Shown piece by piece: positions 40,368 through 63,173 of a stretch of DNA of 64,000 bases. The notes beneath the pieces were generated by a model. That model made no database searches. It was not told the origin of the DNA and was given only the letters and a program-made list of their open reading frames with translations. Origin of the DNA: Octopus vulgaris (lineage: Eukaryota); contig OX597816.1 of assembly GCA_951406725.2 (NCBI GenBank), positions 148,924,001 through 148,988,000 on the forward strand, read 5' to 3'. Both the position numbers and the translations under genes were made by a program. The first letter of the stretch is position 1; the number at the start of each line of letters is the position of its first letter.

Positions 40368-41333
40368 TCAAGTAAGTTCATCTGTTAAATCTATAGAGAT
40401 ATCATTAACTTGTGGTGATAATGACACATTATTTCCTCTGGATGTAGGACCAAAAGAACAGGCACTTTTTCTACTGATTACAGATTGACTGAAAGGTTTA
40501 TAAAAATTTCTTCCAATGAGACTGGGCTGAGAACACATTTTTTTAACAATACAAGATACAGGAGATAAATCATTGGCCAGAGAGCTTTCAGATGTATTGG
40601 ATTTCATATTAGATTTTTGTACATTTGATGTTGCTCTACTATCTGTGGTGTCTGAAAATGGCACAGCAAATACTTTACTGGGTACAGCTGAAGAATCTGA
40701 TGGCGATATATGGGATATCCGAGAGGTGCTTAAATTTCTTTTGGATAGATGTGATATATTATGATTTTGTTGACTATATATACTGTTTACAGGTTCCAGG
40801 GATTTAGTTTGTGCACTGGGGACAACAACTAAACTAGTAGAAGAGTTTCTGTTTTTACCTACATCTAATGAACTGACTTCAGACTTCCTTTCAATGGCAA
40901 TGTTTGTATTTTCTTTATGTTGTGTTAATTCAACTACAGAAATGTCATCTTTTATATTAATAATATCTTTAGTGTTAGTTGAAAGAGGTTTGGATGATGA
41001 TGGCTGAATTGGTGTTATAGTAATGTTTGATGATACAGATGCTTTAACTGGTATTTGGTGATATTGTGGATGATGTAATGTGGTTGCAAGTTGACTGTTA
41101 CACAAATACTCAAATTCGCTCATATCTAATTGTTTTGCAATAATTTTTAACTGTTGTAAAATATCTGGATCAAGATCAAGAATCCCGTTGTATGCATATT
41201 CTGCAAAAGCAGTTAAAGCTTCTTTGCTAACTTCCTGTGGTAAGTTAATTTGGAGAAACTTGTGAGAAAGCATATCTGCACCAAACACTGACAGCAGTTT
41301 AGGACACACAGCAGCTAGGACAACTTTATGCAT
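40368..41333 (-). CDS. BTB gene 2, last exon: C-half of BTB plus Ser-rich tail ending ISIDLTDELT
   Basis: tttcag|MHKVVLAAVCP...FAEYAYNGILDL...IAKQLDMSEFEYLC; 322 codons; the tail aligns by eye with gene 1 (PFSDTTxSxAT, DLSPVS). Confidence 0.9.
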   Translation of the reverse strand: MHKVVLAAVCPKLLSVFGADMLSHKFLQINLPQEVSKEALTAFAEYAYNGILDLDPDILQQLKIIAKQLDMSEFEYLCNSQLATTLHHPQYHQIPVKASVSSNITITPIQPSSSKPLSTNTKDIINIKDDISVVELTQHKENTNIAIERKSEVSSLDVGKNRNSSTSLVVVPSAQTKSLEPVNSIYSQQNHNISHLSKRNLSTSRISHISPSDSSAVPSKVFAVPFSDTTDSRATSNVQKSNMKSNTSESSLANDLSPVSCIVKKMCSQPSLIGRNFYKPFSQSVISRKSACSFGPTSRGNNVSLSPQVNDISIDLTDELT

Positions 41334-42293: not shown

Positions 42294-42343
<50 letters not shown>

Positions 42344-42745
42344 CTTTCAGTTTCCATCTTCCAAATCTACTCACAAGGCTTTGATTGGACCAAGGCTATA
42401 GCAGAAGACATTTAACCAAAGTGCCACAAATTTGGACTGAACCCAGAACCATGTATTTACAAAGCAAAGTTCTTAACATAGAGCCAAGCCTGCACATATG
42501 TTTGGAAATGAATTGTAGGGATGTATAACTTCATGGTAATCTTAGTGCTAAGATTAGAGAATTTTGAAATAGAATTCCCATTTATTTCAAAGTCAACTAA
42601 GAGAAATTAACAAAATAATGTTCCTTACCTTAAAACACAACACACAGGCGCTACAACATAGTTTGAATTTGTGGTCAGTAGCTCAGTAACATAAACTCAT
42701 TATTTGGTAAAAGTTATTGTGCAATAAGTCTTCAATTAAACTTAC

Positions 42746-43058
42746 CATCACTGTAGATGTACCATTTCCAATACCAGCATCACATAATTTTCCACTCTTC
42801 CATAGCAATGCCAGACTGGACATTACATTTTTCTGATGATCAGCAAGAATAAATATTTTCTTTTCGTGAGGTTGTGGCATTTCAAAGGTCTTTGGTTGCA
42901 TAACAGACGTCAGAACTGGAGGCATTGAGAAGTGAACCGACTGTGGTACAGTACCAACATCCTTAATCACACAAATAGGCTTCTCAGCAGCAATTTGAGA
43001 AGTAATTTCCTGACAATTTCCAGCCATTTTAGAAACGTGGCTATCACCACTCATTTCC
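42746..43058 (-). CDS. BTB gene 2, exon with N-half of BTB (DHQKNVMSSLALLWKSGKLCDAGIGNGTSTVM)
   Basis: tttcag|G GAA...ATG|gtaagt; same phases as the BTB gene 1 exon. Confidence 0.88.
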
Positions 43059-44352
43059 CTGAAATTTATTGAAATAAGAGCTATATAAATGATATTTCAT
43101 AAAAAGACCTTGAAATGAGAGAAATACGTTTAGAGAAGCGTTTTCTTTGTGGACAATAAAGGAGTAAAAATTAGGATACTCTTTGAATTTCACTTTCATC
43201 ATCATTTAATGTCTGCTTTCCATGATGGCATGGGTTGAACTTTTTGACTGGAGCTGATAAGGCCAGTGGGCATACCAGGCTCTTGTCTGTTCTGGCATAG
43301 TTTCTACAGCTGAATGCCCTTCCTAATGCCAAGTGTTCCACAGAGTGTACCAAGTACTTTTTATGAAGCAGCACCAGCACGAGTGCTTTTAACAAGGCTC
43401 TGAAGATAGCCCTTAAATATTTGAATAATTTCAAACAAATTGATATATCAAATATTTTTATACATAGAATTCACAAAAATGGCTATACAAGGGTAGATTC
43501 ATGTTGTTTAACCTCTAACCTACAAAATATTATTTTTATGACCATATTCAGATTATTATTTGTTGTATAACATTGAGTTGTTGTTTAACTCTAGGTCTAC
43601 CCTAATTGAGAAGGCCTGTGATCAAAGATGTTCTACTCGTGACTAACCATTCTTTTTTTTTTCTAAACACCATGTACTTAAAGCCATATTATCCAATGTA
43701 TCCTTCCTTGTTTAGGACTGTGGTGTGATTTGAGAGAGATTTAGCAGAGAGTATTGATGTTCAATGGCCAAATGTTCCTTCTCAATAACAATGTAAGTGA
43801 GGAAGATGTTTTAAAATGTCCTAGAAACCAACAATGGAACATCTGCAGTCATTCCACTTGTTCGAAATAACAGCCATATTGTCCTACAAAATAGCAAAAT
43901 AAGTCCTTTTTCTAGACATATTACATGTTTGTTACTCATTAGATTGTTCTGGTGAAGCTGCAAACCACTAAAATGCTACATGAAATAACTAAACCAATAC
44001 TCTATACCTGGTGGTACATACTTTATCACATGTAATTATAAATGCTAAAGCTAACTTAGTCAGAATCTAAGCCACAGAACTGATGGCTCTAAACTAGTCT
44101 AATTCAGGCAGCTTTAGTAGTTCAACTTAATTACCTAATCAGAAAAAAACATACAAAAACAAAATTATAAACACAAACTGCAATAATACAATGACAGGTG
44201 ATGCCATGCGTGAAGACTCAAGTACTATAAACTACACAATGGCAAATAAATCATAAGCTAAATAGTTAATATGGAGTGAAATAACAATGCATTCTAGGCA
44301 AGAGGACACCCTGAGAAACCTGTGGATGCTAAAAATAAATCTGTAGCGTTAC

Positions 44353-44511
44353 CTGTCATGTATCTGAATATTGCTTGGTGCTATTGAAGGGAGATCATCT
44401 AGATTGATACATTTGACAGAAGAGATTGGTGGTGTCTTGTTAGGGAACTCTGATCTGTATTATAGATTATTTAAGCTTAACAATCTGGCTTGATCATCTC
44501 TAAATGATTGC
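44353..44511 (-). CDS. BTB gene 2 symmetric phase-2 exon with in-frame TAA at 44460-44462 (alternative in-frame acceptor at 44454)
   Basis: tttcag|G CAA TCA...GAC AG|gtaacg; 159 nt; the start is homologous to exon 46969. Confidence 0.5.
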
Positions 44512-44588
44512 CTGAAATTCATGTCAGAACTAAAACCAACCAATTCTTCAAAACAAAATGGCAAACAATCAAAAATCTATCAATTCAC

Positions 44589-44800
44589 CTGCCAACAGAG
44601 GTATTTCCTTGATAATATTGTTCTTTTTCTGGATGTTTTTCAAATGTCCTGGCAGCAGTCAGTTTCTTTGGAATTTTGGTAGCTGGAATTGGACAGTGTG
44701 GTTCATCTGGAATGATAACTGGGTTAGAAGAGACAGAAGGTGATTTTCTTTGATGTATTGATATATTCTTTTTTGCTTTATTCTGGTTCAATGATCTTGC
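44589..44800 (-). CDS. BTB gene 2 linker exon (ARSLNQNKAKK...GR)
   Basis: ttgcag|...AG|gtgaat; phase 0 to 2; start resembles exon 47063-47244. Confidence 0.65.
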
Positions 44801-46359
44801 CTGCAATCATAATTGGAGAATATTGTAAAATCAGCTAGATAATAATCATGTAAATATGCAGAATTAAATGTACCTTGAACATTTTCTTCTCTCAAATTAT
44901 ATAAAGCCTATATATATTCAATAAAATACAATATTTCAGAAAATTATATACACACACGAGGGCCCAGGAGATGTGGCAATTTGCTGTACTTGATAAGACA
45001 TGTCAAACTAAGTAAAATAGCTGTCTTCTACACATACAGGCTTGTTCTTTCAAGTGTCAGTGCCACAGAAAAAGCACTCGTGCTGGTACTGCATAAACAC
45101 AACCATGCCAGTGGCATATAAAAAGCACCCAGCACATTCTTAAGTGGTTGGCATTAGGATGGGCATCCAGCCAGAGAAACCATGCCACAACAGACAATCA
45201 GAGCCTGAACACCTCCCAGCTAGCCAGCTCTGTGTCAAACCATCCAACCCATGCCAGCATGGAAAGCAAACATTAAACGATGTTGATGAAGATGATACAC
45301 ATACAGAGTGTATCAGATATTTGAGAACAAAATATTTATTAGAATAAAAGCAGGTACACATAGCAAAAGGTTATTCATTAAAACCACCATCAGTCTCATT
45401 ACGGCTTTAGAAACTAGATGTATTGATCAGATGATCTTTATTCATGTTGGCCATAAAGTCCCTGACAGTAGACATCAACAAGTCTTTGGTGTTGTGAGCA
45501 TGCTAGTTGGTTTCCTTCTCAAAAACACTCCAAATGTAAGAGGCCAAATTTTAAGGATAACATTATCCACTCCTTCATGCAAGCTGTATGAGATGGAATA
45601 AAATCTTACTGGAACACATATAGCCTCCCCCAAGCAACTCTCTTGAATCCAGGCTTGACAACTATCTATACTGTCTCAATGTTGGTTGCTGCACTAACCC
45701 TAAAACCATGACGATAAAAAAATGTTGAGTTATGACCCATGAACATCAGACTATGGAAATTTAGTGGGGATTTCAGTGAAGCTGGCACAGTGCCATCTGT
45801 CATTTCTCTTGTTCACTTTTTGATCTTAGACAAAAATCTCATCTAAGAAGAACCAAAGCATGTCAGGCTCCTCAGAATGCTTCAATTTGTTCAGCATTCG
45901 ATCCTCCATCCCTCTTCTCATAACAGGATTTGTATCTGATGTCTTCATGCACATATATCTAATTGTCAATTCTGAAACATGGTGATGACAGACAATGGCT
46001 CTCATTTGACTTGCCAGGTTTATCATTGATTATTCCTTGGATTTGCTGGACATTTTGACTTTCTTAACAATGTCTGACAGTCAATAACGTTTATTTTTGT
46101 TTTTTTCTTTTAACTACAGAAGGCACATTCCCACCAGAGACCAAGAGCTTTTTCTGATCTTAAATATGAAGGACCTGGCAACATTTAAGAAGGTTTCAAT
46201 CTCAAAACCACTGTAGTTGACAGCTAAGGTGATGAGAACGGCATGCATTTTTCATCATCTGTGTTAGTTTCCATAATGGGACAGAAAAAAGAGGCTAGTT
46301 TGCTTAAGTTTGGGCCACTTATTGTTTTTAAAAGTTTGGTTTTCAAATAGCCAATACAC

Positions 46360-46396
<37 letters not shown>

Positions 46397-46680
46397 GTGG
46401 ATATACCTGCCACATACAACAGATTTCTCATAGTTTCCAAAGTGCAACACAGTAGAACTGAATTCAAAATCATGTGGTGGGAAAAGCAGCTGAAGCTCAA
46501 CAGTTTTTTCAAATTCTAAATGTATACTGTTATTCTATGTACTAGATATTTAACTAGCAAATCCACCTCACCCACATTCAAAGCTTTCATCTCTTAAATT
46601 TCCATATACCAAGAGAAACCTAACTGCAAACATACCCACATAGTCACAGTACAAAGTAAGTTAATAACAGAAGGACATAC

Positions 46681-46969
46681 CATCACTGCGTGCGAACTGT
46701 TGCCAGTACCAGAATTACATGATTTTCCATTCTTCCATACTGAAACCTGATTGGACATTTTATGGACACCAAGAATAAATTCTTTGCAGGGGAGTTGAGG
46801 TTTTTCAACAGGTGCAGGCTGAGAAATTGGATTCTGAACTGAAGATACTGAGAACTGAACTGTTTGAGCTATATTTTCTGCTTTCTCCATTTTAGGTTTA
46901 GAACCTGGGACTGAAGTTTGAGAAGGAAATTGTTGTGGCTTCTCAACAATATCTCTACCATCAGACTGC
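46681..46969 (-). CDS. BTB gene 2 exon ending in a degenerate copy of the BTB N-half (KEFILGVH...WKNGKSCNSGTGNSSHAVM)
   Basis: tttcag|G CAG...ATG|gtatgt; clear paralog of exon 42746-43058. Confidence 0.72.
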
Positions 46970-47062
46970 CTGAAATACATTGAAGTATAAAATTACAAAA
47001 GAACATAATTATTCAAATTGAAAAAAAAAATACAATGAAAAGCCATGACAAAAATAATTTAC

Positions 47063-47244
47063 CCATCATTGAAATCATTGTTTTTGTGTTTCTTTATCAA
47101 ATGATCTTCTATAGGTTTTGTTCGATCATCAGTAACAGGAGGCAACAGATGTGAGTCACTTGAAGTAGGCACTGTGACAGATATGGGTTGTTTTCTTTTT
47201 CTAGTAACTCTATATTTTGAATTATGTTGATTCAATGCTGCAAT
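47063..47244 (-). CDS. BTB gene 2 linker exon (IAALNQHNSKYRVTRKRKQP...), with an NLS-like RKRK
   Basis: ttgcag|...GG|gtaaat; phase 0 to 2; open frame. Confidence 0.7.
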
Positions 47245-47424
47245 CTGCAACATGAATGGGAAAAAAATCAATAGAATAGCATTAAAGGAAAGATATGTAA
47301 TTGCTTTTGTGTAGGCATAGGTCAATTTCATAAGGAATTGATTGAGGCAACTAACTGGATTAGAACTCTGAAAATAAATAACAATGAATACATGAGACTA
47401 TGAATGTGTGGTGGGGGAGGGGGG

Positions 47425-47735
47425 TGAAGGTACATGGCTTAGTGGTTAGGGCATTCAGCTCATGATAAGGTCAATTCCCAGCAACGCATTGTGTCCTTGA
47501 ACAAGACATTTTATTTCACGTTGCTCCAGTCCACTCAGCTGGCAAAAATGAGTAGTACCTGTATTTGAAAGGGCCAGCCTTGTCACACTCTGTGTCAAGC
47601 TGAATCTCCCTGAGAATTATGTTAAGGGTACACATGTCTGTGGAGTGGTCAAGTCACTTGCACATTAATTTCACGAGCAAGCTGTTCCATCGATCGTATC
47701 AGCTAGGACCATCATCATTGCAAACAACAGAGTGC
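47425..47735 (+). mobile_element. tRNA-derived CORE-like SINE, representative copy
   Basis: catggcttagtggttag head and gtgtccttgaacaagacattttatttcac core. Other copies at about 9445-9750, 28090-28415 and 39780-39990. Confidence 0.8.
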
Positions 47736-47989
47736 TCCTCTCTCTCTCTGCATGCGTGCATACTATAATGGAGAAAGCTGCTTATTAATTAGGCATGTAA
47801 CAATTACTAAAAGTACTAAAAGAAAGCAATATTAAAAGCTTAACCGTCTAGAAATATTTTTATAAATTCATGTTCTAAGAAATTGCCTATATGTGTGTAT
47901 GTAGGTACAAAATAATATTGCATAATAGAAATTTATACAGAGTCAAAGAGTCATCAACTGAGCAGAGTACATCAAAACTGAAGTAGCAT

Positions 47990-49300
47990 AGTGGGCAGAA
48001 ACAACAGGACTTAAGATTATTGTTCCTTTGTGTTGGTCAAATATAGTGCCAGTGAGTGCCATAAGTTTGTGTGCCATTTTGAAATTCTTATTAACTGTCT
48101 TCTGCATATGCTGTGAATGAGATGTTAAATCCTAATATTTTTGTCTTTTGGGTGACTGATCTGTTTGGGTGTGATGACTGGTTGTAAATGATGTTTTCTA
48201 GTGTTGCTGGTAAAAAGGGAAATGGTGGATTTAGTAAGTGCTACTCTAGGACCTTTGTTTTGGAGTCAGTTTTCTCAGTAGTTAATGTAGAGTTGAAAAA
48301 GATGTACAACAGTTTGAAAATTGGTGGGAAGATGCAACTGAGAGATTATCTTCATATGAAGTTATGTTTTGAGGAAGTGTGGGAAGGTTGTATTGATATT
48401 GAGAAGTGAGACCTTGTGATACACTTTTCAAGATATTGCAAAAATGTTGTTGTATAGTACAGTACATAGGCTTGTCAATTCAAGAGTTTTTTAGTAAGCT
48501 AGCAATGAGTGTTGTTTCTAAAGTTCTTGAGTATTTTGAGTATAACTGGGCAACAAGAGTGGAGTCAAAAGCTTTGCATTCAGGGAAGAATATCATGTAT
48601 TTTTGTTTTAAGGTTAATGAATAGTGTAGTAGTTGGGTGTGGTAGTAGTCTGAATCTATAGTATGATTTGGAAAACAGAGTGTAGGGGTGATACGTATCA
48701 AGGTTGAAAGTGTACATAGGAGAATGACAGTCCTACGTTACTTTACATGGGTTTTAAAACTGCTATTATTCTGTCCAGTTTCCAGATTTTGAGAATTTGG
48801 CAGTACTGATACAAGTAGCTGATGACAGTGGTTTTGTCAGGCTTTAGAGCTTTCAAGGTTTTTTATTTATTTATTGCATTTTTGGTGTTTCACAGGAGAA
48901 AAGGGTAATCTAAGTGGAAGATACATATTTTGTGTTTTGTACTTAGAAATTACTGTCTTTGTGTGGTTTTTAGTGATTCGTTTACAAGAAATGTCTGCTA
49001 AGAGCATTTGCTTGGTGTTGGAATGTAAATAAATTGAAGTTATTGAGGATATGGGTTTGGTGTTGCTAATACTGGTCATTATTCAGCATAAGGTTTTACA
49101 GTTTTGTTGTGTCTTAGGAGAGTCATTGGAGTAGTGATTCTCCCAAGACACAAAATTTGTTTCAACACACAAATTCACATAAATCTAGCAAATCAAAAAC
49201 AAAAACAAAGTGTTGTGATTAATGTTGAATAAAAATGTTTGTTAGTGTCCTCTTTTTCAATGGTTAATTTTCTTGGCTAACTTTTAGTTTAGCTTCTAAG
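47990..49300 (-). mobile_element. Highly degraded LINE-like RT remnant
   Basis: Only IFF..CKAFDS (RT motif-like) is recognisable; strong strand compositional skew. Confidence 0.35.
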
Positions 49301-50274
49301 TGTGATATTCATTGTTTTAAAGACTTATCTCAAGTTTTGTTTTCTTCAGGTTACAATTTCAATAGTGTAAATGAGATATTTTTTTTATGTTATCTTGTTT
49401 TTCAGAAGTGTCTATAATAATTTTGTTGAATGTATGTACTGCTATGTCGATGTTGTTGCTGCTGTTTAACCAAGGTAAATTAAATCAAATTGATCCTATG
49501 ATCAAAAGCATTTTAGGAATGACATTGTTGACTTGGAGATATTAGTGAATATGTACATACACTTCATCTTTACCATTAGCAACGCAATTAGTCAACAGAG
49601 AAGTGTGTCCAGTTGCATAACATTTACTCATCCTGCTGCTATTACTCGTGATTGCTATCCTTATTATTGATAGTGTCGATATTGATTCTTACTTGCTGTT
49701 GTTATTCAAGCTCTCCCTACACTTCACTACCAGTCTTTGTTAATGTTTGTAGCAGGTTTTGTTAATTTATTATCAGGTGAAACAATATTTTCTATGAACT
49801 TAACTTTTAATACTTTCAACAAAGCAGATGACAAGACAGGATACTGTCCTTGCTAACAGTCTACTTTTCAAGTCTATTCAGGCAACCTACAATGAAAGAT
49901 GTATTTATCTCCCCTTTTACAGCTGAAACGATATTTACATATTCTACACTCAACATTATTTTCAACATAATGTAGGAGGAGCATATCTAGTTGTTGGCCA
50001 GACATACAAATAATATTTACTCCCAAAGTCAAATACAGTTATGATTTATTTACCAACAAAGACATCAAAAAGAATATTACAAGGTTAAAAGCAAAACATG
50101 GAAAGCTTATACAATATTCTTATAAAATGACTTCAAAAACAATGGATAGACCAAACAGTAAACAGATAAATGCCTGGAGAAGATAGCTACACAGGTCAAA
50201 TCAGTATATTTCAAAAAACTCGACCAGCAAAGACAGTTTGCAACTATTTGCAGTCCTCTCTCTCTCTCTAGAGC

Positions 50275-50343
50275 AGGGGTCTCCAACTCATGGCTCACCT
50301 AGCGATTTTCTACAGCCCGTTATCTCAAGGGAGAAAATAAAAT

Positions 50344-50382
<39 letters not shown>

Positions 50383-51380
50383 GCCTGTAGCCAGTTGAGT
50401 GGGAGTGTACATTCCTTGGCCCCCGAATTATTTCAGAATGTATAAAGAAATAATTTTAAAATATTCTTTAAAAAGTGCCCATTTCTGGCAATTTATAGGC
50501 AAGTACCCACCGAGAGCTTCCTTTTTTGCTCTCAGAAAAACTGTTTTTTAGGTACACCTCCTCCTCATCTTGCCCACCCATCCCCACTTTCTTGAATTTT
50601 TTTCGGGCTATAGGCTTGTATATGTGTATATATATTGGGACGTAAAAAGCACCCCCTACACTCTCAGAGAGATTGGTATTAGGAATCAGCTGTAGAAACC
50701 TTGCTAGATCGGATTGGATCTTGGTGCATCCTTCTGGCTTGCCAGTCCACAGTCAAACCATCCAACCCATGCCAGCATGGAAAGCAGACGTTAAACGATG
50801 ATGATGATGATATATAGTATAATATAATATGATTCATACTAATTGTCGTTTAACAAATTTCTAATCCGGACTCCTTTTTCATTTCTTTTCAGTTAGAATT
50901 GGAGGCACACCAACTTAAGCATGATAATAAAACAAAAAGACGTTGAGTAAAATCACTCTCCATCAAAATGGTTTCTGAAAAAAACGGAAAATATCAGATG
51001 AAAATAGGATATTTGAAGAACGTTGGGAAGATAGATACTTTGTGAGCCAGAGTCAAGCACGTGCAAGTGGGAAATGCCAGATTCAGTGTCTTATTTGCCT
51101 GCATACAGTGGCACTAGAATTCACAGCCTAAAGACTTTGATAAGTTTGAAGGCAAATTAAGACATGATAAACTTTGTCAGTTGAAATCATCTCTATCACA
51201 ACAGGGACATGCTTTCAACTAAGTGCACACATCGTCAGAAGATGTAAAAGCCAGCTATGTAGTCAGTCAAATGATTGAAAAGATATCACACTCATTTACT
51301 GAAGGTAAATTCGTGAAAGACTGGTGAATATTGCCCAAATTCTGTCAAGAAAAAGTGGAGATCTTTTCTGAAATATGAGC
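50275..51380 (+). mobile_element. Degraded hAT transposon 5' part, interrupted by other repeats
   Basis: caggggtctccaac-type terminus and remnant ASYVVSQMI...FTEGKFVKD. Confidence 0.6.
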
Positions 51381-52450
51381 TGTACAGGGATACCATTAGC
51401 AAGGTAAGGGTCGGCAATGAGTATAGTGAAGAATCCTGAGTAGAAATAGGGGATCAGCCCTCAGCCCCCTTTTATTCATCATAGTCCACCAGACAATAAC
51501 AGAGGAATTCAAAATAGGCTGCTCCCGGGAGCTCCTCTATGCTGATGACCTTGCTCTCATAGTGGAATCACTACTAGAACTAAAGAAATTTCAAGTGTTG
51601 AGGCAAGGTTTAGAATCAAAGGGCCTTAGAGTCAATGTTGCAAAAACCAAAGTCCTAGTAAGTAGGAAGGCAAACACATCGCAAACACCTCCAGGTAGGT
51701 GGCCTGCTCGATCTGTAGAAAAGGTGTAGGCAGAACTCCATATGATGTACACTCTTGGATGCATAAGAGGTACAGTAGCATCAAAGAATGGTTAACCGGG
51801 AAGATAGCTTTTGTGTGTGGCAGATGCACAGAGGCAATAAACACCACGGATGCTCAGAAAACTGATTCAATCACATGTCAGGGGGAGAAACTAGAAATAG
51901 TTGATAGTTTCCACTACCTAAGTGACCAAGTCTGTAATGGGGGTGGATGCTTGGAGAGCATTGTCACTAGAATAAGAATAGCCTGGGCAAAGTTCAGAAA
52001 GCTCCTACCTCTACTGGTGACAAAGGGCCTCTCGCTCAGAGTGAAAGGTAGATTGTATGATGCATGTGTGCGAACTGCCATGCTACACAGCAGTGAAACA
52101 TGGGCCATGACTGCTGAAGACATGCATAGACTTGAAAGAAATGAAGCTAGTATGATCCGCTGGATGTGTAATGTCAGTGTCCACACACTACAGAGTGTAA
52201 GCGCCCTGACAGAAATGTTGGACATAAGAAGCATCGGATGTGGTGTGCAAGAGAGATGACTGCACTGGTATGGTCATGTGCTGCATATGACTGAGGAGAG
52301 CTGTGTGAAGTGTCACTCCCTAGCAATGGAAGGAACCCATGGTAGAGGGTGACCCAGGAAGACATGGGATGAAGTAGTGAAGCAAGACTGTCGAATGTTG
52401 GGCCTCACAGAGGCAATGACAAAAGACCGAGACCTCTGAAGATAAACTGT
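51380..52450 (+). mobile_element. RTE-clade LINE 3' fragment
   Basis: LLYADDL motif and RIRIAWAKFRKLLPLL...GRLYDACVRTAMLHSSETW, with stops and frameshifts. Confidence 0.9.
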
Positions 52451-52509
52451 GATTGAGAGTATTGGTATGTGATATTGTGCAATATTCATTCATGGCATAT
52501 ATATATATA

Positions 52510-52705
52510 TGCACCTGTGCCGGTGGCACGTGGAAAGCACCCACTACACTCACGGAGAGGTTGGCGTTAGGAAGGGCATCCAGCCGTAGAAACATTGCCA
52601 GATCAGACTGGGCCTGGTGCAGCCTTCTGGCTTCCCAGACCCCAGTTGAACCGTCCAACCCATGCTAGCATGGAAAGCAGACGCTAAACGATGATGATGA
52701 TGATA
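52510..52705 (+). mobile_element. (GAT)n-tailed SINE (ttggcattaggaagggcatccagc...ccatgccagcatgg), representative copy
   Basis: Other copies at about 6010-6210, 20655-20840, 28605-28810, 29210-29370, 43195-43380, 45040-45295, 50640-50810 and 61745-61800. Confidence 0.85.
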
Positions 52706-55257
52706 TATATACTCTCAGGCCTTCAAGCAGGCTAGCCACATGCTAGAAATAAGAGCCAAATCTCACAAAACTGCGATAACATAATGTAATCAACCTATTC
52801 ACCTTTCTGCAAAGATTTTCAGAGTAATTTCCTGCAGTAATATGACGAAGTAAGTCATGTGAAATGAAAGTGGCTTTAAAAAAAAAAAAATTTTTTAACT
52901 TTCTTTTTTAAACTTTAATTTTTTTTTTTTTTTTTGCGAAATACGTAGAAAAATATGAAGATTACGATTCTGAAAAATATTTGTAAAATTTCAAGTTTTC
53001 AACAAGAAAAAAAAAGAATATATAGCCTCAGGCCTTCAAGCAGGCTATCCACATGCTAGAAATAACAGCCAAATCTCACAATACTGCGATAAAATAATGA
53101 CATTTTGAAAATGTGATTTTTGAAATATCTTTTTTTCAGAATCGGATCCTCTATAACCAAAAACGTGGGATTCCGTAAAAAAAAAAAATCAATATATATA
53201 TATCCATTTTAACCGAATTTATGACGGAAAAATTGGATCTTGTGAATTTTCCGAAAATTTTGAAAACGTATTTCTAGCATGTCAGGTTTTCTGATTAGAT
53301 ACTTTTTGCGTCTACTATTTTATAATTCTATGCATACGTGAAAGATTAGTAGAGATTAACACTTGAATTTCACTTCTTGTCATAGAGCGGATTTTTTTTT
53401 CTTTTTGAAAAATTGAATTTTACACATTTTTTTTTCCAGAATCATAATCTCCGTATTTTTCTGCTTATTTCGCCAAAAAAAGTTTTTTTAAGAGAAAATT
53501 TAAGAAATTAGGGGAGGGGTGGAATTAAAATTTTGAAATGCTAGGTTTTTTTTTTGTAGATTCGGAATCTATGCACTCGATATAGTGGGTTCCTGTCAAA
53601 AAAAAATCCATTGTCTTTACCTCCGCCGGAAAGAAGTATGCAACACACATTAGACAGACAGATAGATATATCTTATTGCTTAGTCAGAAGACAGGGCAAT
53701 GCTCAAGCATCTGAGTCTAGTTGATGGGAGGGAAGACAGAATGTATAATAATAATTCTTTCTACTAAAAGTACAAGGCCTGAAATTTCTGAAGGAAAAAT
53801 GCTAGTCGATTACATCGACCCCGTGCTTGACAGGTACATATCTTATCGACCCCGAAAGGGTGAGCGGCAAAGCCAACCTCGACGGAATAAGCTTATTTGT
53901 ATAGTGCTCAGAGGCACTGCAAATGTAAGGCCAAGTCTTACATTTGCGCAACAGAGTAGAATATCTTTATTATGATCATGGTGATCTTACATAAAATGAG
54001 ACAATACAGGACAAACAAAAGACAAAGATGTTACATGAGTTCGCATTGTGTAAATATTAAAAATTAACTTAAATAATATGTATTTTATATATCGTTTGAA
54101 AAAATTAGAACTTTGATTTAAACTGAAACTAAGTCATAGAAACACACGAACAAAACGTTATGGGTCGCACCCGGCAGCCTGTAAGGCCCAGCAACGAACT
54201 TTTCCTTTCCTCAATGATTAAGCTGGGTTACTAACACCCACCTTTCTCATCACATCCTTCCATCGTTTCTCGAATCTCGGTGGCAGGGTCCTCCTCTCCA
54301 GCCCCATCTTTATATTGACCGAAAATAGTTAGTTGGTGTGCGTATTGTTTACCTTCGCCAACTGTTCAACCAGTCCGCCACCCTAAATAAGCTGTACAGT
54401 ATTCCAGGGTACATGTCTCCATTAGACGAGTTTAAGATGTACCTTGTGAGGTCCATGTAAGCCTGGTTACTATGTAAATGTGTATGTTAATTAGTGTCAA
54501 AAGATTTCCATCGGTCTCACAATTCTATCTACTAGACCTAAATCCTTGGATCGACCCGAGTTGTGGAACACCTGCTCCAAATGAACATGCAGATCGAAGT
54601 GGAATGAAGCTCGTTTTGAAAGTTGTTATAAGACCAATTTCATAAACTATTCGATCATAAATGCAACCAAGAAATCCTACACATTAATAAACACGAAAAT
54701 GAAATTTTTTCAAAAGCAAATGCAGAACGAATGAAACCGCATTTGTGTGTTCCAGATGTTCTTTCTTACACTACACCGAGCCGCATATGTTTGCTCAGAA
54801 ACAAATACTTGCTTCACTAAGTTCCCGCTGTACTAAGAAGCTTATCGTTCGTGTATCCGTATATGATTTATAATTCGTCCAACGTCAGTCAAGAAGCGAT
54901 ATAACGAAAGAGAATAACAGGAACATGAAGTCGAATATTATTAATGAGGAAACAGGATAGAGTGACGTTGCAACTAATTAACAGAGCATAAGTGACAAAA
55001 CTTATATGAAGACAATAAATGAATAACAATGTAGACAATAATAACCATTTCTTATGTAAACAAAGCGATTCTTTTTTAAAATTCAGCAGAATCAATATTA
55101 ATATATTAGGGTTACATTTTATTTCGAAGTTGTCCGAAGACTAAAAAGTAGTCAAATTTAGCGCGATTTGAATAAGTACATAAAATTATGAAACTAAATA
55201 TTCCAAGGATTAGTTTAGCACTCTACTTCAATCACAACAAAACCAACATATACTCAC

Positions 55258-55728
55258 ATCTTCAATTTCTTCTTTCGACAATTTACATCGTCGAATTTTG
55301 GAGCGCGAAAATCCCACCAACGGTTTGTGATTGTGTTGTAAGTTGGATCTGGTTATCCTTAGTAATCCTTTAGCACTGGATAGCGAGAGGAAAGACTTAC
55401 ATCCGACCGGCTTGCAATGCATCTTAAGTCGCTTTGTGTTTGAATTACCTTTCGGTTCTCCATGTTGAGTACACACAAACGTCACGGAGACGTATCGGAG
55501 TGCCCGAGATCGAGTTTTGTCTCGGTACTTGTTATGGTCATTAGCATTACACGATGATTTAATACGGTATATGTATCCAGTTCTGTTCATGAACTGGTGC
55601 AATAGCTTCGAGAAGGAGTCAAAGGAGTCAAAAGCGGTCTGAATGAAAACATCTCCGAATATTTTTGACACATCAATCAACATTTCGCATATAAGTTTGG
55701 AGTTTACTTTCTCCTCATGCGCGCGCAT
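55258..55728 (-). CDS. BTB gene 2, putative first coding exon: FAR1/WRKY-GCM1-type (ZSWIM3/9-like, MULE-derived) zinc DNA-binding domain
   Basis: F.SF..F..L....TG..Y, then VCTQHG...GCKSFL...LRIT..NLQHNH and LSKEE; intact 157 codons ending in a strong GAT|gtgagt donor (phase 0). The link to the downstream exons is inferred from phase. Confidence 0.75.
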
Positions 55729-56134
55729 CAAAGCATATGCGTTCGATATTTCGATGGTTTCGTTGGAAATCGTTGAGCACGTGGGTTGTCACATGGTATC
55801 CCACACAAATAAATAGTGATCTTTCAAGTGAACATTACTTTCAATACACTGCATTTCCAATAATTCAATTACAACTGTGCTCTTTCATATTTACATTAAA
55901 CACAAGGCACTGTACAGATCATGTCCCATTTATTTAGTTTCATTATCGAATATTTTCTTCTTTTAAATATAAAGATGTTTGCTTTTTATCGGAAGATGCT
56001 GGCTACTTTAACAAAAGTAATAACTTAAAGCAAAATCATGCACTAATCAATGAAAAAGACTCTTCGTGGTTATTTGACCTATTAGAAATGCTACCGTGAA
56101 AAAAGGAATATAACTCTGTATAATGTAGTTCTAA

Positions 56135-58365
56135 GTAATAAACTTTTATTGCCTTCATGGTGTTTACCGTTTTACAAAATTAAATTAGAAAATTGGACAA
56201 AACAGAGAACACAACCGAAAAAAAATTTTGAGAAAGGAAATAGAAAAGAACCTAAACAATTCAGCACCTTGAATTGAAAAGTTGGGGGCACTGGGAAACC
56301 TCTTTAATGGCTATTGCAGCGTTGCCATAGGTGATTGCGAGGCTGATGCGCTGGAACAGCCAAGGACCCTCACAAGCCTCACCAGTTACTTCTGCAAGGC
56401 AAGTTGCCAGTGAAAACAGAAATCTCGCAGTTAGTGGTCCGACACCAACAAAAGTCTCGAATGCCACAGGATGGAAAATGTAGTTGGCCGACAGATCGCT
56501 GTATTTCAGGATTTTGTTCCGCTCAGCCACAGAAGCTGTGGATCTCGCCCTGACCACAGCACCCAGGATGTGAGAAGCAAAGGAGTTGTTAACTGTAACA
56601 TCCCCGACAAGGCATCTACCTTGCGACCAAGGGCACAGGGTGAGGCCATCAGGTCTATTTCCATCACATCTGGACAATCCAGATGGTTCCAAGATTAAGG
56701 GGATGTTTGCCCAGGCCAAGCTCTGCTTGAGTATCAGGTTTAACTCCGTATGACACACAAAGCAACCAGCATTCAGGCAGCAAGAAAGGCCATGAAGGCC
56801 TGCAGAATTGAGAAGCCTGCCACAATGACAGATTAAACCCGTGCATACGTCAGCTCCCACTCTGAGGGCAATTGAGACACAAGGTACGTCCAAGCTGAGC
56901 AGGCCACCAATATTAGCCACATGGATGGCATCAATCCAGACACCTCTGACAGTCCTTCTCCAGAGCAGACAAGCCCAATTCCCTCCAGTGTTGGAGAACT
57001 TCATCCAGTTCCCTGTTGAAACTGGTCCATGTTGGAGAGGACAAGATATTGCTCACCAGGGTGGAGGAAAGGAAGCAGGGGAGAGAGAGGGACAAACACT
57101 TATGAAGACCAAGACCTCCAAATGCAGCCTGATCGCATGACGTTGGAGAAAGTTTGACATTGATTAAGCATTCGAGTCTCTCAAAGATTAGGTTGTCGAA
57201 GCATTGGAGGCACAATGGGAATCGGTAAGATGAACTGACTCTGAATAAATATAGAAAGCTTAGGGATTGAGAAGTAATTTCTAAGTATGAAAAAATATTG
57301 ATGGGATTTGATAGCTTCAATATTTTTCAGCAACTGCTCAAGGGCAGCCACCTTCAGCTGGAAGATTGACTCAAAGGCAAGGTCAGTGATTGGAATTCCT
57401 AGGAAGCACCAAGCCGATGGGGCAGGGCCTGCAATGGAAGGGAAGGACTCTGCAAAAAGGTCAATAGTTGATTGATGGTGAGAAGCCAGGTGGATGAGGA
57501 TCCAGAACTAACATTTGGAGCTGTTTACTTGGAGACCCCGGTGACCAAGCTCCCTAACTATCATATCTGCAATGGTGAGAACACTGTCCAGAGGTCCCCA
57601 CAAACAAGTATCGTCGAGATAGCAGACGTTGAGGTCTAGCTCAACCCCCATCTTGGTAATGTCATCAATGCCCAGAGGTAACAGAGCGGGCCCAAGTGGG
57701 TCACCCTGTTGGACTCCTGAAGCGGAGGTGATGATTTGGTCACTGAGAGATAGGAGGGCTCCCGATAAATCTGCCATGCAAGGCAGTAGAGTTGTGGGAC
57801 CTTCACTTTTACTGAGCTGAGGACAGCATCGCAGTGGATGGAGATGACCTTGGGTAACAAGGAGAACAAGTTGGCATAGGCTCTGGTAGTGTAGGCAGCA
57901 GCTTCACATCCCAATTTGGTGCCCAATCCTAGCTGGGTGGGGTAAAATTCTTCCTCCAATAAGCTAGAGATTGATTGTAAGCACACCTTTGCATTGAGAC
58001 AGCGAAGGCTGCAGCTGACTACAATGGGGCGCAGGTCTCCATTGGGTTTAGTGAGCACGAATAATTTTGCACCAATGAATAGTGGGCAGATATAAAGGAA
58101 GACGTTCACTGAAGAGAACTGGTTCACAAACTGAGTCAAATTTTCCAAGAGCTCAAGTCTGGCATCACCGGCCAATAAGAAGATACCATCCTTGAGGTGT
58201 TAAGGTCGAAGGCCATCAATTCGCGCACCTGAACCAGTAGGGAAGGATGAAATCGCCTTTCTGATGTTATCAGACATGAAGACCAGTCTCGAGTATTCTG
58301 GAGGGTTGGGCCAGTTTAGGTGATTATCAGTGGGTGCTGGTGTGTGCTTCTTTCACACGTCTAAG
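56135..58365 (-). mobile_element. Decayed, 5'-truncated CRE-like non-LTR retrotransposon (RT + restriction-like endonuclease)
   Basis: RT motifs KPNGDLRPI, GVQQGDPLGP and YLDD; C-terminal CHCG...H.L.C, RPDG, KILKY and F.PVAFET; several frameshifts; GC-rich relative to flanks. Confidence 0.88.
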
Positions 58366-58527
58366 AGACTGAAAAATTTTTTAACAAATACTCACAAGAC
58401 AGAAAACTCTTCTGTATTTTTCATTGGAAAATAAAACAAGGCATGTATTTCAAAAATTATTTATTACAAAACTAAAGCTCAATTTATCAGTGTGTATGTG
58501 TGTGTAAACTGAAAACTATTTCTGATA

Positions 58528-59577
58528 TCAAGTAAAACCATCTGTTTTATATAAACCTGTATTTTTGACATTGGTAACTTGTGTTGATGATAATGGTAAT
58601 CTGTCCCCTTCTGCTGTAAAAAGTCCTACAGGATAGACATCATCATTGCTACCATAATTCACACTGTTGTCAATTGACTGAGTTGCTACAGTGCGAGTTA
58701 ACGGTTTAGAAGAGTCTTCTCTTATGAGTCTAGATTCAGAACACAATTTTTCTTCACTATATGACACAGGAGATAAGTCAGAAACTGGAGAACTTTCAAA
58801 TACATTAGATTTTAATTTGGGTGATGTTCCATATATCTTATTTGCTGTTGCTTTGCTATTTGTGGTATCTGAAAACGGTAAGCTAAAATCTGTAGTGGAT
58901 ACAGCTATAGAATTCAAAGGAGTGTTTAGTGCCTGAGAATTATCTGAAACTGAACCAGATGTGTAAGCTCTTTTATTCATTTCACCATATTCGTCATCAT
59001 CAGGTCCTACAGGCTCGATTTTTACAGTGGGAAGAATAAGAGAACCAACTGGAGGGTTGCCACCGTTAGTGTCCAGGGATGAAGCCTGAGACTCTTGCTT
59101 AAAGGTTCTAAGTGTATCTTCTTTAAGTTCTGCTAATTCATTTTGAGAAATCTCCTGCTTAATATCCTCTGTATGGACAGCTGAAACAAATTTGGTTGAT
59201 ATTGGAGTAGGAAATGAAGAAGATGTCTGAATCATTGCATCTGTTTTGCTTATTGTATTGGACACAAAAGATGGCATCTGCCTGGTATCATCAAACGCAG
59301 TGACTGTTGAAGCAAGTTGCTGACGTGCTCCACTTTGAAGATGAGCATCACACAGATTTTGTAAATCTTTCATGTCTAATCGTTTTGCAATGACTTTTAG
59401 CTGTTGTAAAATATTAAGATCAAGATCTAATAGTCCAGTATATATGTATTCAACAAAAGCCATTAAAGTTTCTGTGCTTACTTCAGGAAATTTTACTTCA
59501 AAAACCTCAGAAGAGATGTGTGTACTAAATATTGAGAACAGTTTTGGAGACACAGCAGACAAGACTATTTTATGGAC
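58528..59577 (-). CDS. BTB gene 1, last exon: C-half of BTB plus Ser/Thr-rich tail
   Basis: ttcag|VHKIVLSAVSP...FVEYIYTGLLDL...IAKRLDMKDLQNLC; 350 codons to TGA; AATAAA (minus) at about 58460. Confidence 0.9.
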   Translation of the reverse strand, partial: VHKIVLSAVSPKLFSIFSTHISSEVFEVKFPEVSTETLMAFVEYIYTGLLDLDLNILQQLKVIAKRLDMKDLQNLCDAHLQSGARQQLASTVTAFDDTRQMPSFVSNTISKTDAMIQTSSSFPTPISTKFVSAVHTEDIKQEISQNELAELKEDTLRTFKQESQASSLDTNGGNPPVGSLILPTVKIEPVGPDDDEYGEMNKRAYTSGSVSDNSQALNTPLNSIAVSTTDFSLPFSDTTNSKATANKIYGTSPKLKSNVFESSPVSDLSPVSYSEEKLCSESRLIREDSSKPLTRTVATQSIDNSVNYGSNDDVYPVGLFTAEGDRLPLSSTQVTNVKNTGLYKTDGFT

Positions 59578-60142
59578 CTGAAATATAATAAATGATAATA
59601 GTATGTTTATAGCTTGCCAACAATAGAATGACAGACACTTAAGAAATATGTTAATAAAGTAGAAAAATGTAGGCTTATGTTTTTCTGACTTTTTCAAAAG
59701 CTAATGACTCCTAAAAATCTCAAGCCACTGGAAGTCAATTTAAACGTCATTTATTTGGAAGGGTTATTTCATTAATACCTTAATAAAATGAACTTGATTT
59801 TCTTTTTCTGTAAAATATTCTATTCTATATTAGTAAACAAATGTTTCGGTAAAAGTTATTTTCAAAGACTGAGTCATAAAATTTTCAGATAATAATAAAA
59901 CCTAAAAAGTAATAAGTTCTATAACTTCTGATAACGGCACAAAAGATTTTTAATTATAAAGCAACAGATTTATCTAAGAATTGCACCAGTAAGAACATAC
60001 AAATCAACTACACCTACATTTCAGAAATATAGTGGGGAGTAGAAAGAATAGTTTGATATTAAGCCCATTAGAAATTAAGCATAATTTTTTAGACTTAAAA
60101 GTAACATTTTTTAGTTATCATGATGATGACATTAGAAACAGT

Positions 60143-60904
60143 GGATCTTTTCCCTTTGAACGGCAGATTTAGAAAATATTTTTTTGCAACTAAACACTTT
60201 CAAACTTCGGTCACTGGTAGAATATGTCATATAAAACATCTTTTACTCTTAGTGTTGTTGAGAAATTTTCTATTTTCAAAGTTATTTTGTGTTCAAGTAG
60301 TCGTATTTCGGTAATTTCAACCAATCAATGACGTATATTCAGCTGAATAAAATTACTGCCATTGCTTGTCAACAACAACTATCGGCAGTGTATATTTCGT
60401 TTGTCACTGTTATTTATGACATCATTCGTGCATTTGTACTGGTTTTAGCTTTAAGGTTTTAGGGTTAGGGTAGGGTTTTAGAGTTAGAATTAGGGTTTGG
60501 GGTTAGGGTTAGGGTTGGAATTTTAGGGTTGGAGTTACAGAAAAAAGTGAAAAATGAAGAAATTGGAGGGGGAGGCGGCAAAAAAGTCTTGTGGTGGTGC
60601 CATGAAGTAAACATGCTTCAGATACACTTGTTTATTCATACAAACGTAACTGAGATGAAATATGTCATAAATAACAGTGACAAACGAAATATACACCACC
60701 GATAGTTGTTGACAAACAACAGCAGTAATTGTTGAAATTACCAAAATACGACAACTTTAACATGAAATAACATTGAAAATACAAACTTTTCTCAACAACA
60801 CTAAAAGATGTTTTATATGACACATTCTACTAGTGTCCAAAGTTTGAAAGTGTTTAGTTACAAAAAATTAAATTCTCGATCTGCTGTTCAAAGGGTAAAG
60901 ATCT
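60143..60904. mobile_element. Foldback/MITE with about 270-bp TIRs, 8-bp TSD and internal TTAGGG-like repeats
   Basis: ggatctttt... pairs with ...gtaaagatct; gaaacagt is duplicated at 60135-60142 and 60905-60912. Confidence 0.9.
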
Positions 60905-60947
60905 GAAACAGTTTATAATGTGAAAAAGTTTACAACTGTATACTTAC

Positions 60948-61293
60948 CATCACAGTAGATGAGCCATTGCTAATACTGGCATCACATAATTTTCTACTTC
61001 TCCACATAGATGCTAGGTTAGATATGACACAATGTTGATGACTAGTAACTAGCAATTTTCGTTTCAGTAAATCTTTTTTCCTAATTATTGATTTAGATAC
61101 AGTTGTTTGATTTGGATCTTTCACCAGCTTTGATTTGGATGGAGTTATTTGAAATGGTGAAGTCAACACCTGAGCTGGCTTTGTAATATTTTGCGATGCT
61201 TGTGCTAAACTTGAATCTTGCTGGACTGGCATTTTAGTAGTTAGATGTACACATTTTGAAGTCTTTGGAGATGATAAAGCACTGTCCATTTGC
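60948..61293 (-). CDS. BTB gene 1, exon with linker and N-half of BTB (SHQHCVISNLASMWRSRKLCDASISNGSSTVM)
   Basis: tttag|G CAA...ATG|gtaagt; BTB N-terminal H...L..W....LCD pattern. Confidence 0.88.
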
Positions 61294-62509
61294 CTAAAAT
61301 GAAAATTTGCAATTAATTCAGAAGAAATATATATAAGAGAAAAACAACAACTCAACAGCATTGTCAAAATACCATTTTAGTCATCACATACCATATGTCA
61401 TGTGATTGTTGATTTCTTAACTTTTGATTCTGCATGTGTTGCTTCCCAAGGTGCTGTGTTTTATTCTTTTTTTTCTGTATCATTTTCATCTGAGTGTTGA
61501 GGAAGTGAGGCACGATCAAAGAAAGAAATAAAAAGATAAAAGACTAATGAATTCATTTAAATGGAAATAATTGAGACTGTGATGAATTGATAAGTTATTT
61601 TAATGAAAATGTCAATGATAACTAAAAATTCTTGTTTGTAAGGCTGACAAATAATGCTTAATTTCCACATTGAAACTTCCACTGAGGAAAAATGGAATCT
61701 GTCAGCCAAATCCTCAAAAGCATTCAAAATCATCCTGAACAGAGAATCATCATCATCATCATCATTTAACATCCGCTTTCCATGCTAGCATGGGTTGAAC
61801 GAATCTCTACAGAATTCCCAAACTTGAATGAGAATGGAGCTGCATGTTATACATATCCTATTCTGAAATCTGACATGATGGTAGATTGTTATAATTTGAC
61901 TTCAACATCAAATATATAGTAACTGCTGCCACAATTCACACAGACGTTCTCTGGTAGATTTTTTGCAGAAAATTTTTCAACATTGTAATTCCTGATTGAA
62001 CTTACAATTTACAATTGATCTGACAGCAGCTTCATTAAATTTGTATTTTTATCATATACATTGATTCCAAAGTTATACTCAATTTATAATGGATAGTGAT
62101 CCCTCAACACTGTATAGTGTACATGATACTGTATTACAGGTGTGTATTTCTGTGTTGATGATAATATTAGATAATGAAATACTGAGCATGCTAAGTTACT
62201 TGGCTTGCCCACTGATGTTTATCAATTGCACATCTCCTAACCCTGACATGGAGATTCAAGGAAGGATACAAAGTATGACTGAGTCTTAATTCACGATTTT
62301 GTTTTCTTAATCAAAATTGTGGACAGGCTGCAGTACTAAAAGTTGACATCACAAGAGACTTCATATCATAAACCTTCTTAATACATTTATCCTACATATA
62401 TCCTTGGTCTCTATAATTAATTGCAATATCAATGATCTCACAAATAAATTCTATAAGCTGATCTTTGTTATATTTCTCCTATTGGTGTGTGATGCTTAAA
62501 AATGTATAC

Positions 62510-62901
62510 CTGATATCTACCTTGAGACTTGTACGATAAGTATTTGTCCTCTGTTTCTGAGCTTCCAATCTTGCCTGCCTTTGTTCTGGTGTTTCTGCCC
62601 GCCGTCTAGCAAGCTCTCTTTGCCTATGATTTCGTAATCTTAATTGCCTTTCTTCTGCAGTTTCATTTTTCCGTCTTTCCTTTACCCTCATAGCATTCCT
62701 ATAAGCATTTGTCTTCTGTTTCCGATCTTCTAATCTTGCTTGTCTTTGTTCTGGTGTTTCTGCCCGCCGTCTAGCAATCTGACTTTGCCTATGATTTCGT
62801 AATCTTAACTGCCTTTCTTCTGTAGTTTCATTTTTCCGTCTTTCCTTTGCCTTCATAGCACTCCTGGTGAGACGACCCAGTGCTGATACTTTGGGAGGCA
62901 T
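62510..62901 (-). CDS. BTB gene 1, exon with four STPR-type 23-aa repeats (ETxEERxxRL...)
   Basis: Open 392-nt frame from ATG 62901 with the repeats ETTEERQLRLRNHRQSQIARRRA and ETPEQRQARLEDRKQKTNAYRNA. The AG|gtatac donor is phase 2, matching the next exon. Confidence 0.75.
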
Positions 62902-63173
62902 AACTTCATAACACTAGAAAACAAGACGTCCTATTATCAGAGAACATTGACACATTTTCTAGATATCTAAAACTAAAATTAGTACAATATCTTTTAAACA
63001 TGTTACAAGCAACAAATTATACCAATAATCCTTTCCCAATTATGTCTACAGAAAACTAGTATTTATATGAAGATTCCAACTGAAATCTTAGTGTATGGTC
63101 TTCACATTGCACAATATTGCTCTTTATAAACGGAGTGTAAGGGATTAGCTCCCCTTGAAAACTATTGTAAATT

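Follow-up and report, generated by a model that had tools for sequence, protein, structure and literature searches.

A transposase-type zinc domain, probably of MULE origin, forms the first coding exon of an octopod BTB gene

Results

Gene model and transcripts

The window, i.e. the whole stretch of 64,000 nucleotides of the Octopus vulgaris genome analyzed here, corresponds to G000:C3:148924001-148988000 and contains on its minus strand a six-exon gene that joins a zinc domain to a BTB domain. A further 600 kb beyond the window were read (664 kb in total), and cluster positions given below continue the window numbering. The features in and next to the gene are:

55258..55728, minus strand: exon 1, first coding exon, ZSWIM3_N zinc domain, residues 1-157 (Pfam, contigs, tree)
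47063..47244, minus strand: exon 2, linker with the basic stretch RVTRKRK and the phase-0 acceptor for exon 1 (contigs)
46681..46969, minus strand: exon 3, linker; degenerate exon 5 copy in which the first BTB half is also present, in decayed form
44589..44800, minus strand: exon 4, linker (contigs)
42746..43058, minus strand: exon 5, initial part of the BTB domain plus its N-terminal extension (contigs, Pfam, structure matches)
40368..41333, minus strand: exon 6, remaining BTB part, tail of low complexity and stop codon (contigs, Pfam)
54500..56000, no strand: CpG-rich island covering exon 1 and the start of intron 1 (CpG ratio)
55729..56105, minus strand: transcribed 5' region, unspliced in one contig (X1, record 3)
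56134..58199, minus strand: broken reverse-transcriptase-type repeat, multicopy and outside the gene, which bounds the unique promoter stretch
58528..61376, minus strand: last two coding exons of the neighboring BTB paralog, the next of twelve

Exon 1 runs as an open reading frame from an ATG at 55728 to 55258, and its 157 codons are free of stops, just as a first-pass annotation of the window had read them. The stop-to-stop run comprises 186 amino acids; a run as long arose in 3 of 2000 simulations under a dinucleotide model of positions 54500-56250, which speaks against a chance ORF. The exon ends right after the residues LSKEEIED at the consensus donor GAT/GTGAGT, which is in phase 0 and is the top-scoring donor past the zinc domain. 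Contigs from four runs of four studies were aligned to positions 39800-56300, the RNA nature of these runs being read from joins across GT-AG introns and not from the run records. Record 8 of X13 aligns in five pieces in order (55258-55583, 47062-47244, 46680-46968, 44588-44799 and 42833-43057), and record 3 of X1 starts at 56105 and ends in exon 5 as well. In both spliced contigs exon 1 is joined to the acceptor at 47244 (TTGCAG/), and these contigs mean that exon 1 is transcribed. The joint 42746-41333, which completes the BTB domain, is present in 4/4 runs. The span from exon 1 to exon 6 is found in no single contig listed, and one X5 contig reads across the exon 1 donor unspliced.

The translation of the six exons is identical to the public O. 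vulgaris protein CAI9720154.1 (P0005). Thus the donor, the acceptor and the role of the exon as first coding exon of a BTB gene, all proposed in the first-pass annotation from the letters alone, were borne out. The protein comprises 810 residues, with the ZSWIM3_N domain followed by a linker of ~315 residues, the BTB domain (450-573) and a tail; it is annotated as uncharacterised, and the gene is annotated already in four octopod genomes. According to matches against solved structures, the BTB domain resembles the long-form BTBs of KLHL and ZBTB proteins. Pfam finds ZSWIM3_N and BTB only, with neither a BACK nor a Kelch domain in the protein, so that it lacks the layout of a KLHL-type Cullin-3 adaptor, in which BACK and Kelch follow the BTB domain. 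As in host-transposase fusion genes, a transposase-type domain is joined to a host domain by an in-frame splice in the contigs. That the zinc-domain exon is spliced in frame onto the BTB gene, and that the fusion is real, is practically beyond doubt.

Several further observations concern the gene and its downstream side. The half BTB of exon 3 is a decayed BTB remnant within the linker, and a splice from exon 3 could reach the last exon in phase. At position 40445 all four runs carry a 3-base insertion in the last exon relative to the assembly, which agrees with the length of 811 residues of the O. sinensis and O. bimaculoides proteins. Downstream of the cluster, exons of an unrelated gene with an AAA-ATPase-like motif and an IQ-like stretch lie at 400-27400 on the minus strand, and a mariner-like remnant lies at 14702-15292.

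The zinc domain

Pfam places exon 1 in the family ZSWIM3_N (PF21599), which is of the WRKY-GCM1 type that contains an insert, with 41.5 bits against a curated cut-off of 27.8. The FAR1 family (PF03101) reaches only 23.8 bits, under its cut-off of 28.1, and DUF5575_N also matches under its cut-off. Consequently, of the earlier designation as a FAR1/WRKY-GCM1 zinc domain the second half stands while the first does not: the domain is a relative of the FAR1 family and not a member. The predicted zinc ligands are C86, C110, H132 and H134 (spacing C-x23-C-x21-H-x-H), with five K/R among the 23 residues between both cysteines, a basic insert that is followed by the HxH motif. In an alignment with ten relatives C86 and C110 are invariant and H132 and H134 nearly so, and all four ligands are present in the four octopod proteins. 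The exon as a whole is basic (30 K/R vs. 14 D/E).

A structure prediction had been suggested as a check. The AlphaFold (AF2) model of the zinc domain has a mean pLDDT of 76, with the insert (residues 90-108) not resolved. Its top structural match is Aft2 bound to DNA (4lmg; Z 7.1, rmsd 3.1, 82 aligned), followed by WRKY1 (Z 4.8), while Z values under 8 may reflect a common fold arrangement. Foldseek puts the same folds (Aft2, WRKY) first, but at non-significant values (best E 0.25, none ≤ 0.001). The fold match of the model to Aft2 and WRKY is thus middling.

With a CpG observed/expected ratio of 1.33, exon 1 is indeed CpG-rich; the five exons downstream have ratios of 0.0-0.33, and the 664 kb as a whole 0.51. 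Positions 54500-56000 are the sole CpG-rich stretch at 40-78 kb and are likely an unmethylated promoter region. One contig extends unspliced to 56105, and three others end at 55740-55774. High CpG content of heads versus low CpG content of constant exons fits separate unmethylated promoters under the gene-body methylation of invertebrates.

Transposon origin

In agreement with the first-pass annotation, neither a catalytic remnant nor terminal inverted repeats (TIRs) were found next to exon 1: a tblastn search of 47245-58400, for which the catalytic parts from two MULE-type proteins served as queries, reached a best E of 1.5, and none of the 25 longest of 114 inverted repeats at 47300-58400 brackets the exon. 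A check of its copy number found the exon to be single-copy apart from one decayed fragment, without TIRs. The MULE catalytic domain (PF10551) occurs at at least 66 places in the genome, none of the 66 in the BTB cluster, and at the 12 of 66 loci examined no ZSWIM3_N domain lies beside it. An active or recent MULE was rejected, given that no catalytic remnant, no dispersed copy and, among the 25 longest inverted repeats, no TIR pair was found.

A sequence search over 1.84 billion representatives yielded 52 relatives of the domain. Pfam scans covered 51 of these; the remaining one, the best match P0002, carried an annotation already. One of the 51 is unrelated, two bear RNaseH-like/MULE domains (P0011, P0035) and two a BTB domain (Argonauta, crayfish), and the others comprise the ZSWIM3_N domain or its relatives alone. 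Since most of the 52 relatives are without catalytic domains, stand-alone host versions are common. P0011, a partial protein, bears ZSWIM1-3 RNaseH and MULE domains, and it is matched in both its zinc and its catalytic parts by a stop-riddled, CpG-depleted element elsewhere in the genome:

G000:C3:128,926,210-128,927,021: dead element of MULE-like type, which has a ZSWIM3_N part and of which the catalytic part is broken

The DNA of this element matches itself only. Within 10 kb no TIRs were seen; long inverted pairs there recur at 4-base offsets and are simple-repeat-like.

A quick tree was computed from 36 domains, i.e. the 30 best-scoring ones, the named ones, the fossil piece and an exon on contig C13, with lower-scoring unnamed matches omitted. 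The octopod domains group with P0011, P0010 and the dead element (SH-aLRT 97, in a tree without bootstrap), on long branches (stem 1.21, Argonauta 1.33) and with the dead element filling 46% of the columns. By pairwise identity the dead element is no closer to exon 1 (17/66) than to the crayfish domain (15/61). Because the element is single-copy and has no TIRs, a MULE origin is likely, not proven. Judged from this grouping, which supports the domesticated transposase domain of the first-pass annotation, exon 1 probably represents the DNA-binding end of a MULE transposase.

The exon on contig C13 (G000:C13:66,212,617-66,212,832) is intact, comprises a poly-Q stretch and a partial ZSWIM3_N domain, and probably belongs to another host gene. 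It sits elsewhere in the domain tree, on a long branch.

Conservation and a decayed duplicate

Orthologs with both domains are found in O. sinensis (XP_029634338.2), O. bimaculoides (XP_014782235.1) and Argonauta hians (GAB1599654.1), and the last exons of the octopod orthologs form one clade (support 100/99). Between O. vulgaris and Argonauta, identity is 55/116 in the zinc domain, 70/292 in the linker, 100/124 in the BTB domain and 94/237 in the tail. In neutral simulations to 46% identity, the open frame and the four ligands survived in 2 of 2000 runs. Compared to O. bimaculoides, the values are 106/116 for the domain, 270/292 for the linker, 217/237 for the tail and 121/124 for the BTB domain; within Octopus the zinc domain is thus conserved no better than linker or tail and well below BTB, and at this distance 544 of 2000 neutral runs leave it intact. 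As the domain is kept no better than the linker in this comparison, constraint is moderate and the domain is fast-evolving.

The only other genomic copy of exon 1 lies 82 kb beyond it:

G000:C3:149,061,552-149,061,753: decayed duplicate of the 5' part of exon 1 and of 77 upstream bases, with ~385 bases deleted between

Its start codon and the greater part of the domain are gone, and the paralog that it follows is of the type that also stands before the intact exon. Over 41 positions the duplicate has 13 private amino-acid changes and the intact exon 2, while codon differences between both are non-synonymous in 15 cases and synonymous in one. The duplicate is a natural neutral control for exon 1. 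Together with the Argonauta comparison and the neutral simulation, it argues for purifying selection of moderate strength on the captured domain at the protein level.

The BTB cluster and its master gene

Twelve tandem BTB last exons lie on the minus strand at 41-249 kb, and the zinc-headed gene is the last of them. A search with the BTB region retrieved isoforms of O. bimaculoides LOC106877732 and O. sinensis LOC115209932 with varied N-termini on one BTB body, and these N-termini map in order to 251-426 kb, at the locus of the first gene of the cluster:

G000:C3:149,171,500-149,351,000: master BTB gene (first and largest of the cluster), in which at least 24 transposase-type first exons on the same strand are arranged in tiers around three linker exons that they share, the donor phase following the tier

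Among the ORFs at 200-480 kb that start with ATG, are CpG-rich and have at least 50 codons, 26/103 on the minus strand match DNA-binding or transposon-derived Pfam families, compared to 1/68 on the plus strand, a Pif1 helicase. The 26 comprise 10 THAP, 4 CENP-B/Tc5, 3 DUF3504, 2 FLYWCH, 2 BrkDBD and 5 single ones, while 6 of these 26 family matches lie under the curated cut-off. Upstream of the constant exons of the master gene lie 24 of them, and 2 lie upstream of the paralog at 218 kb. The acceptor phase is 0 for the shared linker exon at 398 kb, 1 for the one at 344 kb and 0 for the one at 273 kb. In 23 of 28 heads (24 from Pfam and 4 by eye, leaving out exon 1, the two paralog heads and one split THAP) the best donor agrees in phase with the shared exon that follows, and for the change to phase 1 in the tier at 349-387 kb a Fisher p of 0.015 was obtained, although the test is rough because domain ends were set by hand. 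The public isoform models, found in order, and the donor phases suggest that the master gene may carry many interchangeable heads on one BTB body.

For the zinc-headed gene one head only was found. A ZSWIM3_N profile over the 664 kb finds only the decayed fragment beyond exon 1. A ZSWIM3_N head inside the master locus was considered and is absent by the same profile.

Cuttlefish and other head-plus-BTB proteins are placed, if only with weak support (83/90), outside the octopod paralogs in the tree of the last exons, which suggests that the BTB family may be coleoid-wide and the zinc-headed paralog octopod. No decapodiform ZSWIM3_N-BTB protein is among 28 BTB-region matches, from which absence does not follow; a profile search of longer proteins gave 6 already-known matches only among 7988 scored candidates and says little on squid and cuttlefish.

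Two more observations were made in the cluster. Isoform X2 of O. sinensis LOC115209901 (P0067), at 201-156 kb of the extended numbering, joins the exons of one paralog to BTB exons two genes on and hints at splicing across paralogs. Furthermore, some paralogs have no recognised DNA-binding domain at their start and begin with charged, repetitive E/R-rich exons, namely at 62479-62913 of the window and at 163.6-164.1 kb of the extended numbering.

Discussion

Interpretation and alternative explanations

The explanation that accounts best for these results, and that we consider likely to be right, is that the MULE-derived zinc exon is the predicted DNA-binding head of an octopod BTB transcription or chromatin factor; that the protein as such is a DNA-binding regulator is likewise probable, if slightly less firmly so. 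Before Octopus and Argonauta split, a ZSWIM3-type MULE would have inserted on the same strand as a BTB paralog and upstream of it. A donor just past the domain would then have spliced the MULE exon in phase 0 to the linker exon, and the catalytic part and the ends of the inserted element would have been lost subsequently. The four ligands are predicted to bind zinc, and the WRKY-GCM1 sheet may read DNA as Aft2 and WRKY do. The long-form BTB would dimerise, placing two heads on paired sites and recruiting co-regulators. Within its family the zinc-headed gene would be a member with a single head, and the master gene upstream would exchange at least 24 transposase-type heads on a common BTB body.

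One might further speculate that the cluster is a coleoid platform for the capture of transposases, in which introns upstream of BTB exons trap DNA-binding exons. Each trapped exon would come from an unrelated transposon and have a CpG-rich promoter of its own as well as a donor that agrees in phase with the shared exon that follows; tandem duplication would fix single heads as separate genes, the MULE head among them. Being closely related, the BTBs would pair among themselves, so that dozens of heads could combine into a lineage-specific transcription-factor code. Such a platform would be an independent mirror image of mod(mdg4), and in crayfish an unrelated BTB would have acquired the same MULE domain. 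We put this wider idea forward tentatively and regard it, taken as a whole, as rather doubtful.

The same fusion could have arisen differently, with a head that stems from an older host gene or was carried along from the master locus when the BTB gene was duplicated. Stand-alone ZSWIM3_N proteins of host type are common in crustaceans, flatworms and molluscs, and contig C13 carries one exon of stand-alone type; the THAP head of the O. bimaculoides paralog LOC106877737 is nearly identical to a head of the master gene, and the nearest-looking neighbor by BTB sequence also bears a head of the WRKY-GCM1 type (FLYWCH). However, save for the decayed fragment, the profile detects no other ZSWIM3_N head in 664 kb that could have been copied, the C13 exon falls on its long branch in another part of the tree, and the closest relatives of the octopod domains include a protein with a catalytic domain and the dead element. 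Such an older or copied head is unlikely.

More improbable still is that the domain was retained as a protein-binding module, e.g., as the substrate arm of a Cullin-3 adaptor or as a decoy for MULE transposases. Kelch-like Cul3 adaptors are among the best solved-structure matches of the BTB domain, the zinc domain evolves fast, and an HTH transposase domain captured by F-box genes has been proposed to form interaction platforms (parts of PMC12062965). In contrast, each of the four octopod proteins retains all four zinc ligands, the exon is basic by its count of 30 K/R to 14 D/E, Pfam detects no BACK domain, and the sister heads belong nearly all to DNA-binding families. Finally, that the exon is a near-neutral passenger, providing a promoter and a start codon and kept open only for translation of the BTB domain, is hardly credible: while it is conserved within Octopus no more than the linker and shorter gene models start downstream (P0004, P0007), its domain shows, against Argonauta, double the identity of the linker and retains all ligands (2/2000 neutral runs), and the unlinked duplicate decayed.

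Significance

We favor the DNA-binding head. For the probable domestication of a transposase in an animal that is neither vertebrate nor insect, this gene is well controlled: the fusion is spliced, orthologs occur in two octopod lineages, a dead element is the candidate donor, and a decayed duplicate provides the neutral control. The fusion, the candidate dead donor element and the decayed duplicate all reside within one genome. The MULE ZSWIM3_N domain is a head class that is absent among the heads of the master gene. Taken by itself, the exon is moderately interesting; it gains its value from the surrounding controls and the wider system. For cephalopod biology the cluster offers a delimited group of candidate transcription factors, lineage-specific and uncharacterised, the motifs and pairing of which are directly testable, and a way to ask if the ends of the parent transposons are still bound by the heads captured from them. 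In addition, the crayfish and octopod proteins suggest repeated capture of the same transposase domain by BTB genes.

Comparison with known systems

The gene is already present in databases as an uncharacterised model, and a host-transposase fusion is in itself of a known kind. In the literature searched, with subscription journals mostly outside it and other cephalopod genome supplements, which may list the gene, outside it as well, no description of the zinc-headed gene or of the locus layout was found.

In mod(mdg4), and in lola as a further locus of this kind, a constant N-terminal BTB is followed by variable C-terminal heads, while the zinc-headed octopus gene and the master gene show the reversed order. 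The head of mod(mdg4) is FLYWCH, whereas that of the octopus gene is an insert-containing ZSWIM3_N domain; the octopus BTB is, unlike that of mod(mdg4), not of the Tramtrack type; and the zinc-headed gene has one fixed head. All mapped octopus exons lie in order on one strand, and thus nothing requires trans-splicing. Nevertheless, both systems are alike: Drosophila mod(mdg4) also joins a BTB/POZ domain to a MULE-derived WRKY-GCM1 zinc finger and, at the level of the locus, also places interchangeable DNA-binding exons on one BTB. The features of mod(mdg4) are taken from parts of PMC1702500, which describes mod(mdg4) and repeated fusions of POZ and transposase domains in insects, and which unites the DNA-binding domains of Aft2, FAR1 and MULEs in one insert-containing WRKY-GCM1 family. 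Yeast Aft1/Rcs1 and Aft2 and plant FAR1/FHY3 possess the same insert-containing type of domain (same source, in part). Vertebrate ZSWIM3 shares the domain type as judged by its Pfam name only. In contrast to Aft, FAR1 and ZSWIM3, the octopus protein has no RNaseH-like or SWIM domain after its head and comprises a BTB domain instead.

The capture of transposases by splicing is established in tetrapods (parts of 10.1101/2020.05.07.082677). KRABINER, from the same work, resembles the octopus gene as a transposase DNA-binding domain is spliced onto a host regulatory domain; the octopus gene differs by its BTB instead of KRAB partner, by its occurrence in a mollusc, and by its transposase part, which comes first and has its own likely promoter.

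Octopus BTB-THAP, BTB-CENPB and BTB-Psq proteins from the same cluster have been reported (Mukherjee and Moroz 2023; parts of PMC10027918). The supplement of that study, as far as covered, lists LOC106877732 eleven times as well as LOC106877745 and LOC106877737, while a term search of its supplements did not find the zinc-headed gene LOC106877743 (XP_014782235). The study treats the BTB domain itself as transposon-derived, reports a single Octopus FHY3 and does not describe the layout with alternative first exons in the parts covered. Among the terms searched in parts of PMC12062965 and PMC10236294, neither octopus nor a ZSWIM3_N-BTB fusion is mentioned.

According to its database annotation, LOC128698332 of the crayfish Cherax quadricarinatus (P0024, P0093) likewise has a ZSWIM3_N domain N-terminal to BTB. 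It differs from the octopus protein by a short spacer and a likely C-terminal zinc finger, its BTB domain looks divergent and similar to the arthropod Tramtrack type, and in the domain tree it groups with another crayfish protein. A common origin of the crayfish and octopod fusions was considered, and placing both in one clade was rejected (p-AU 0.015). Thus, the crayfish fusion is likely a separate capture.
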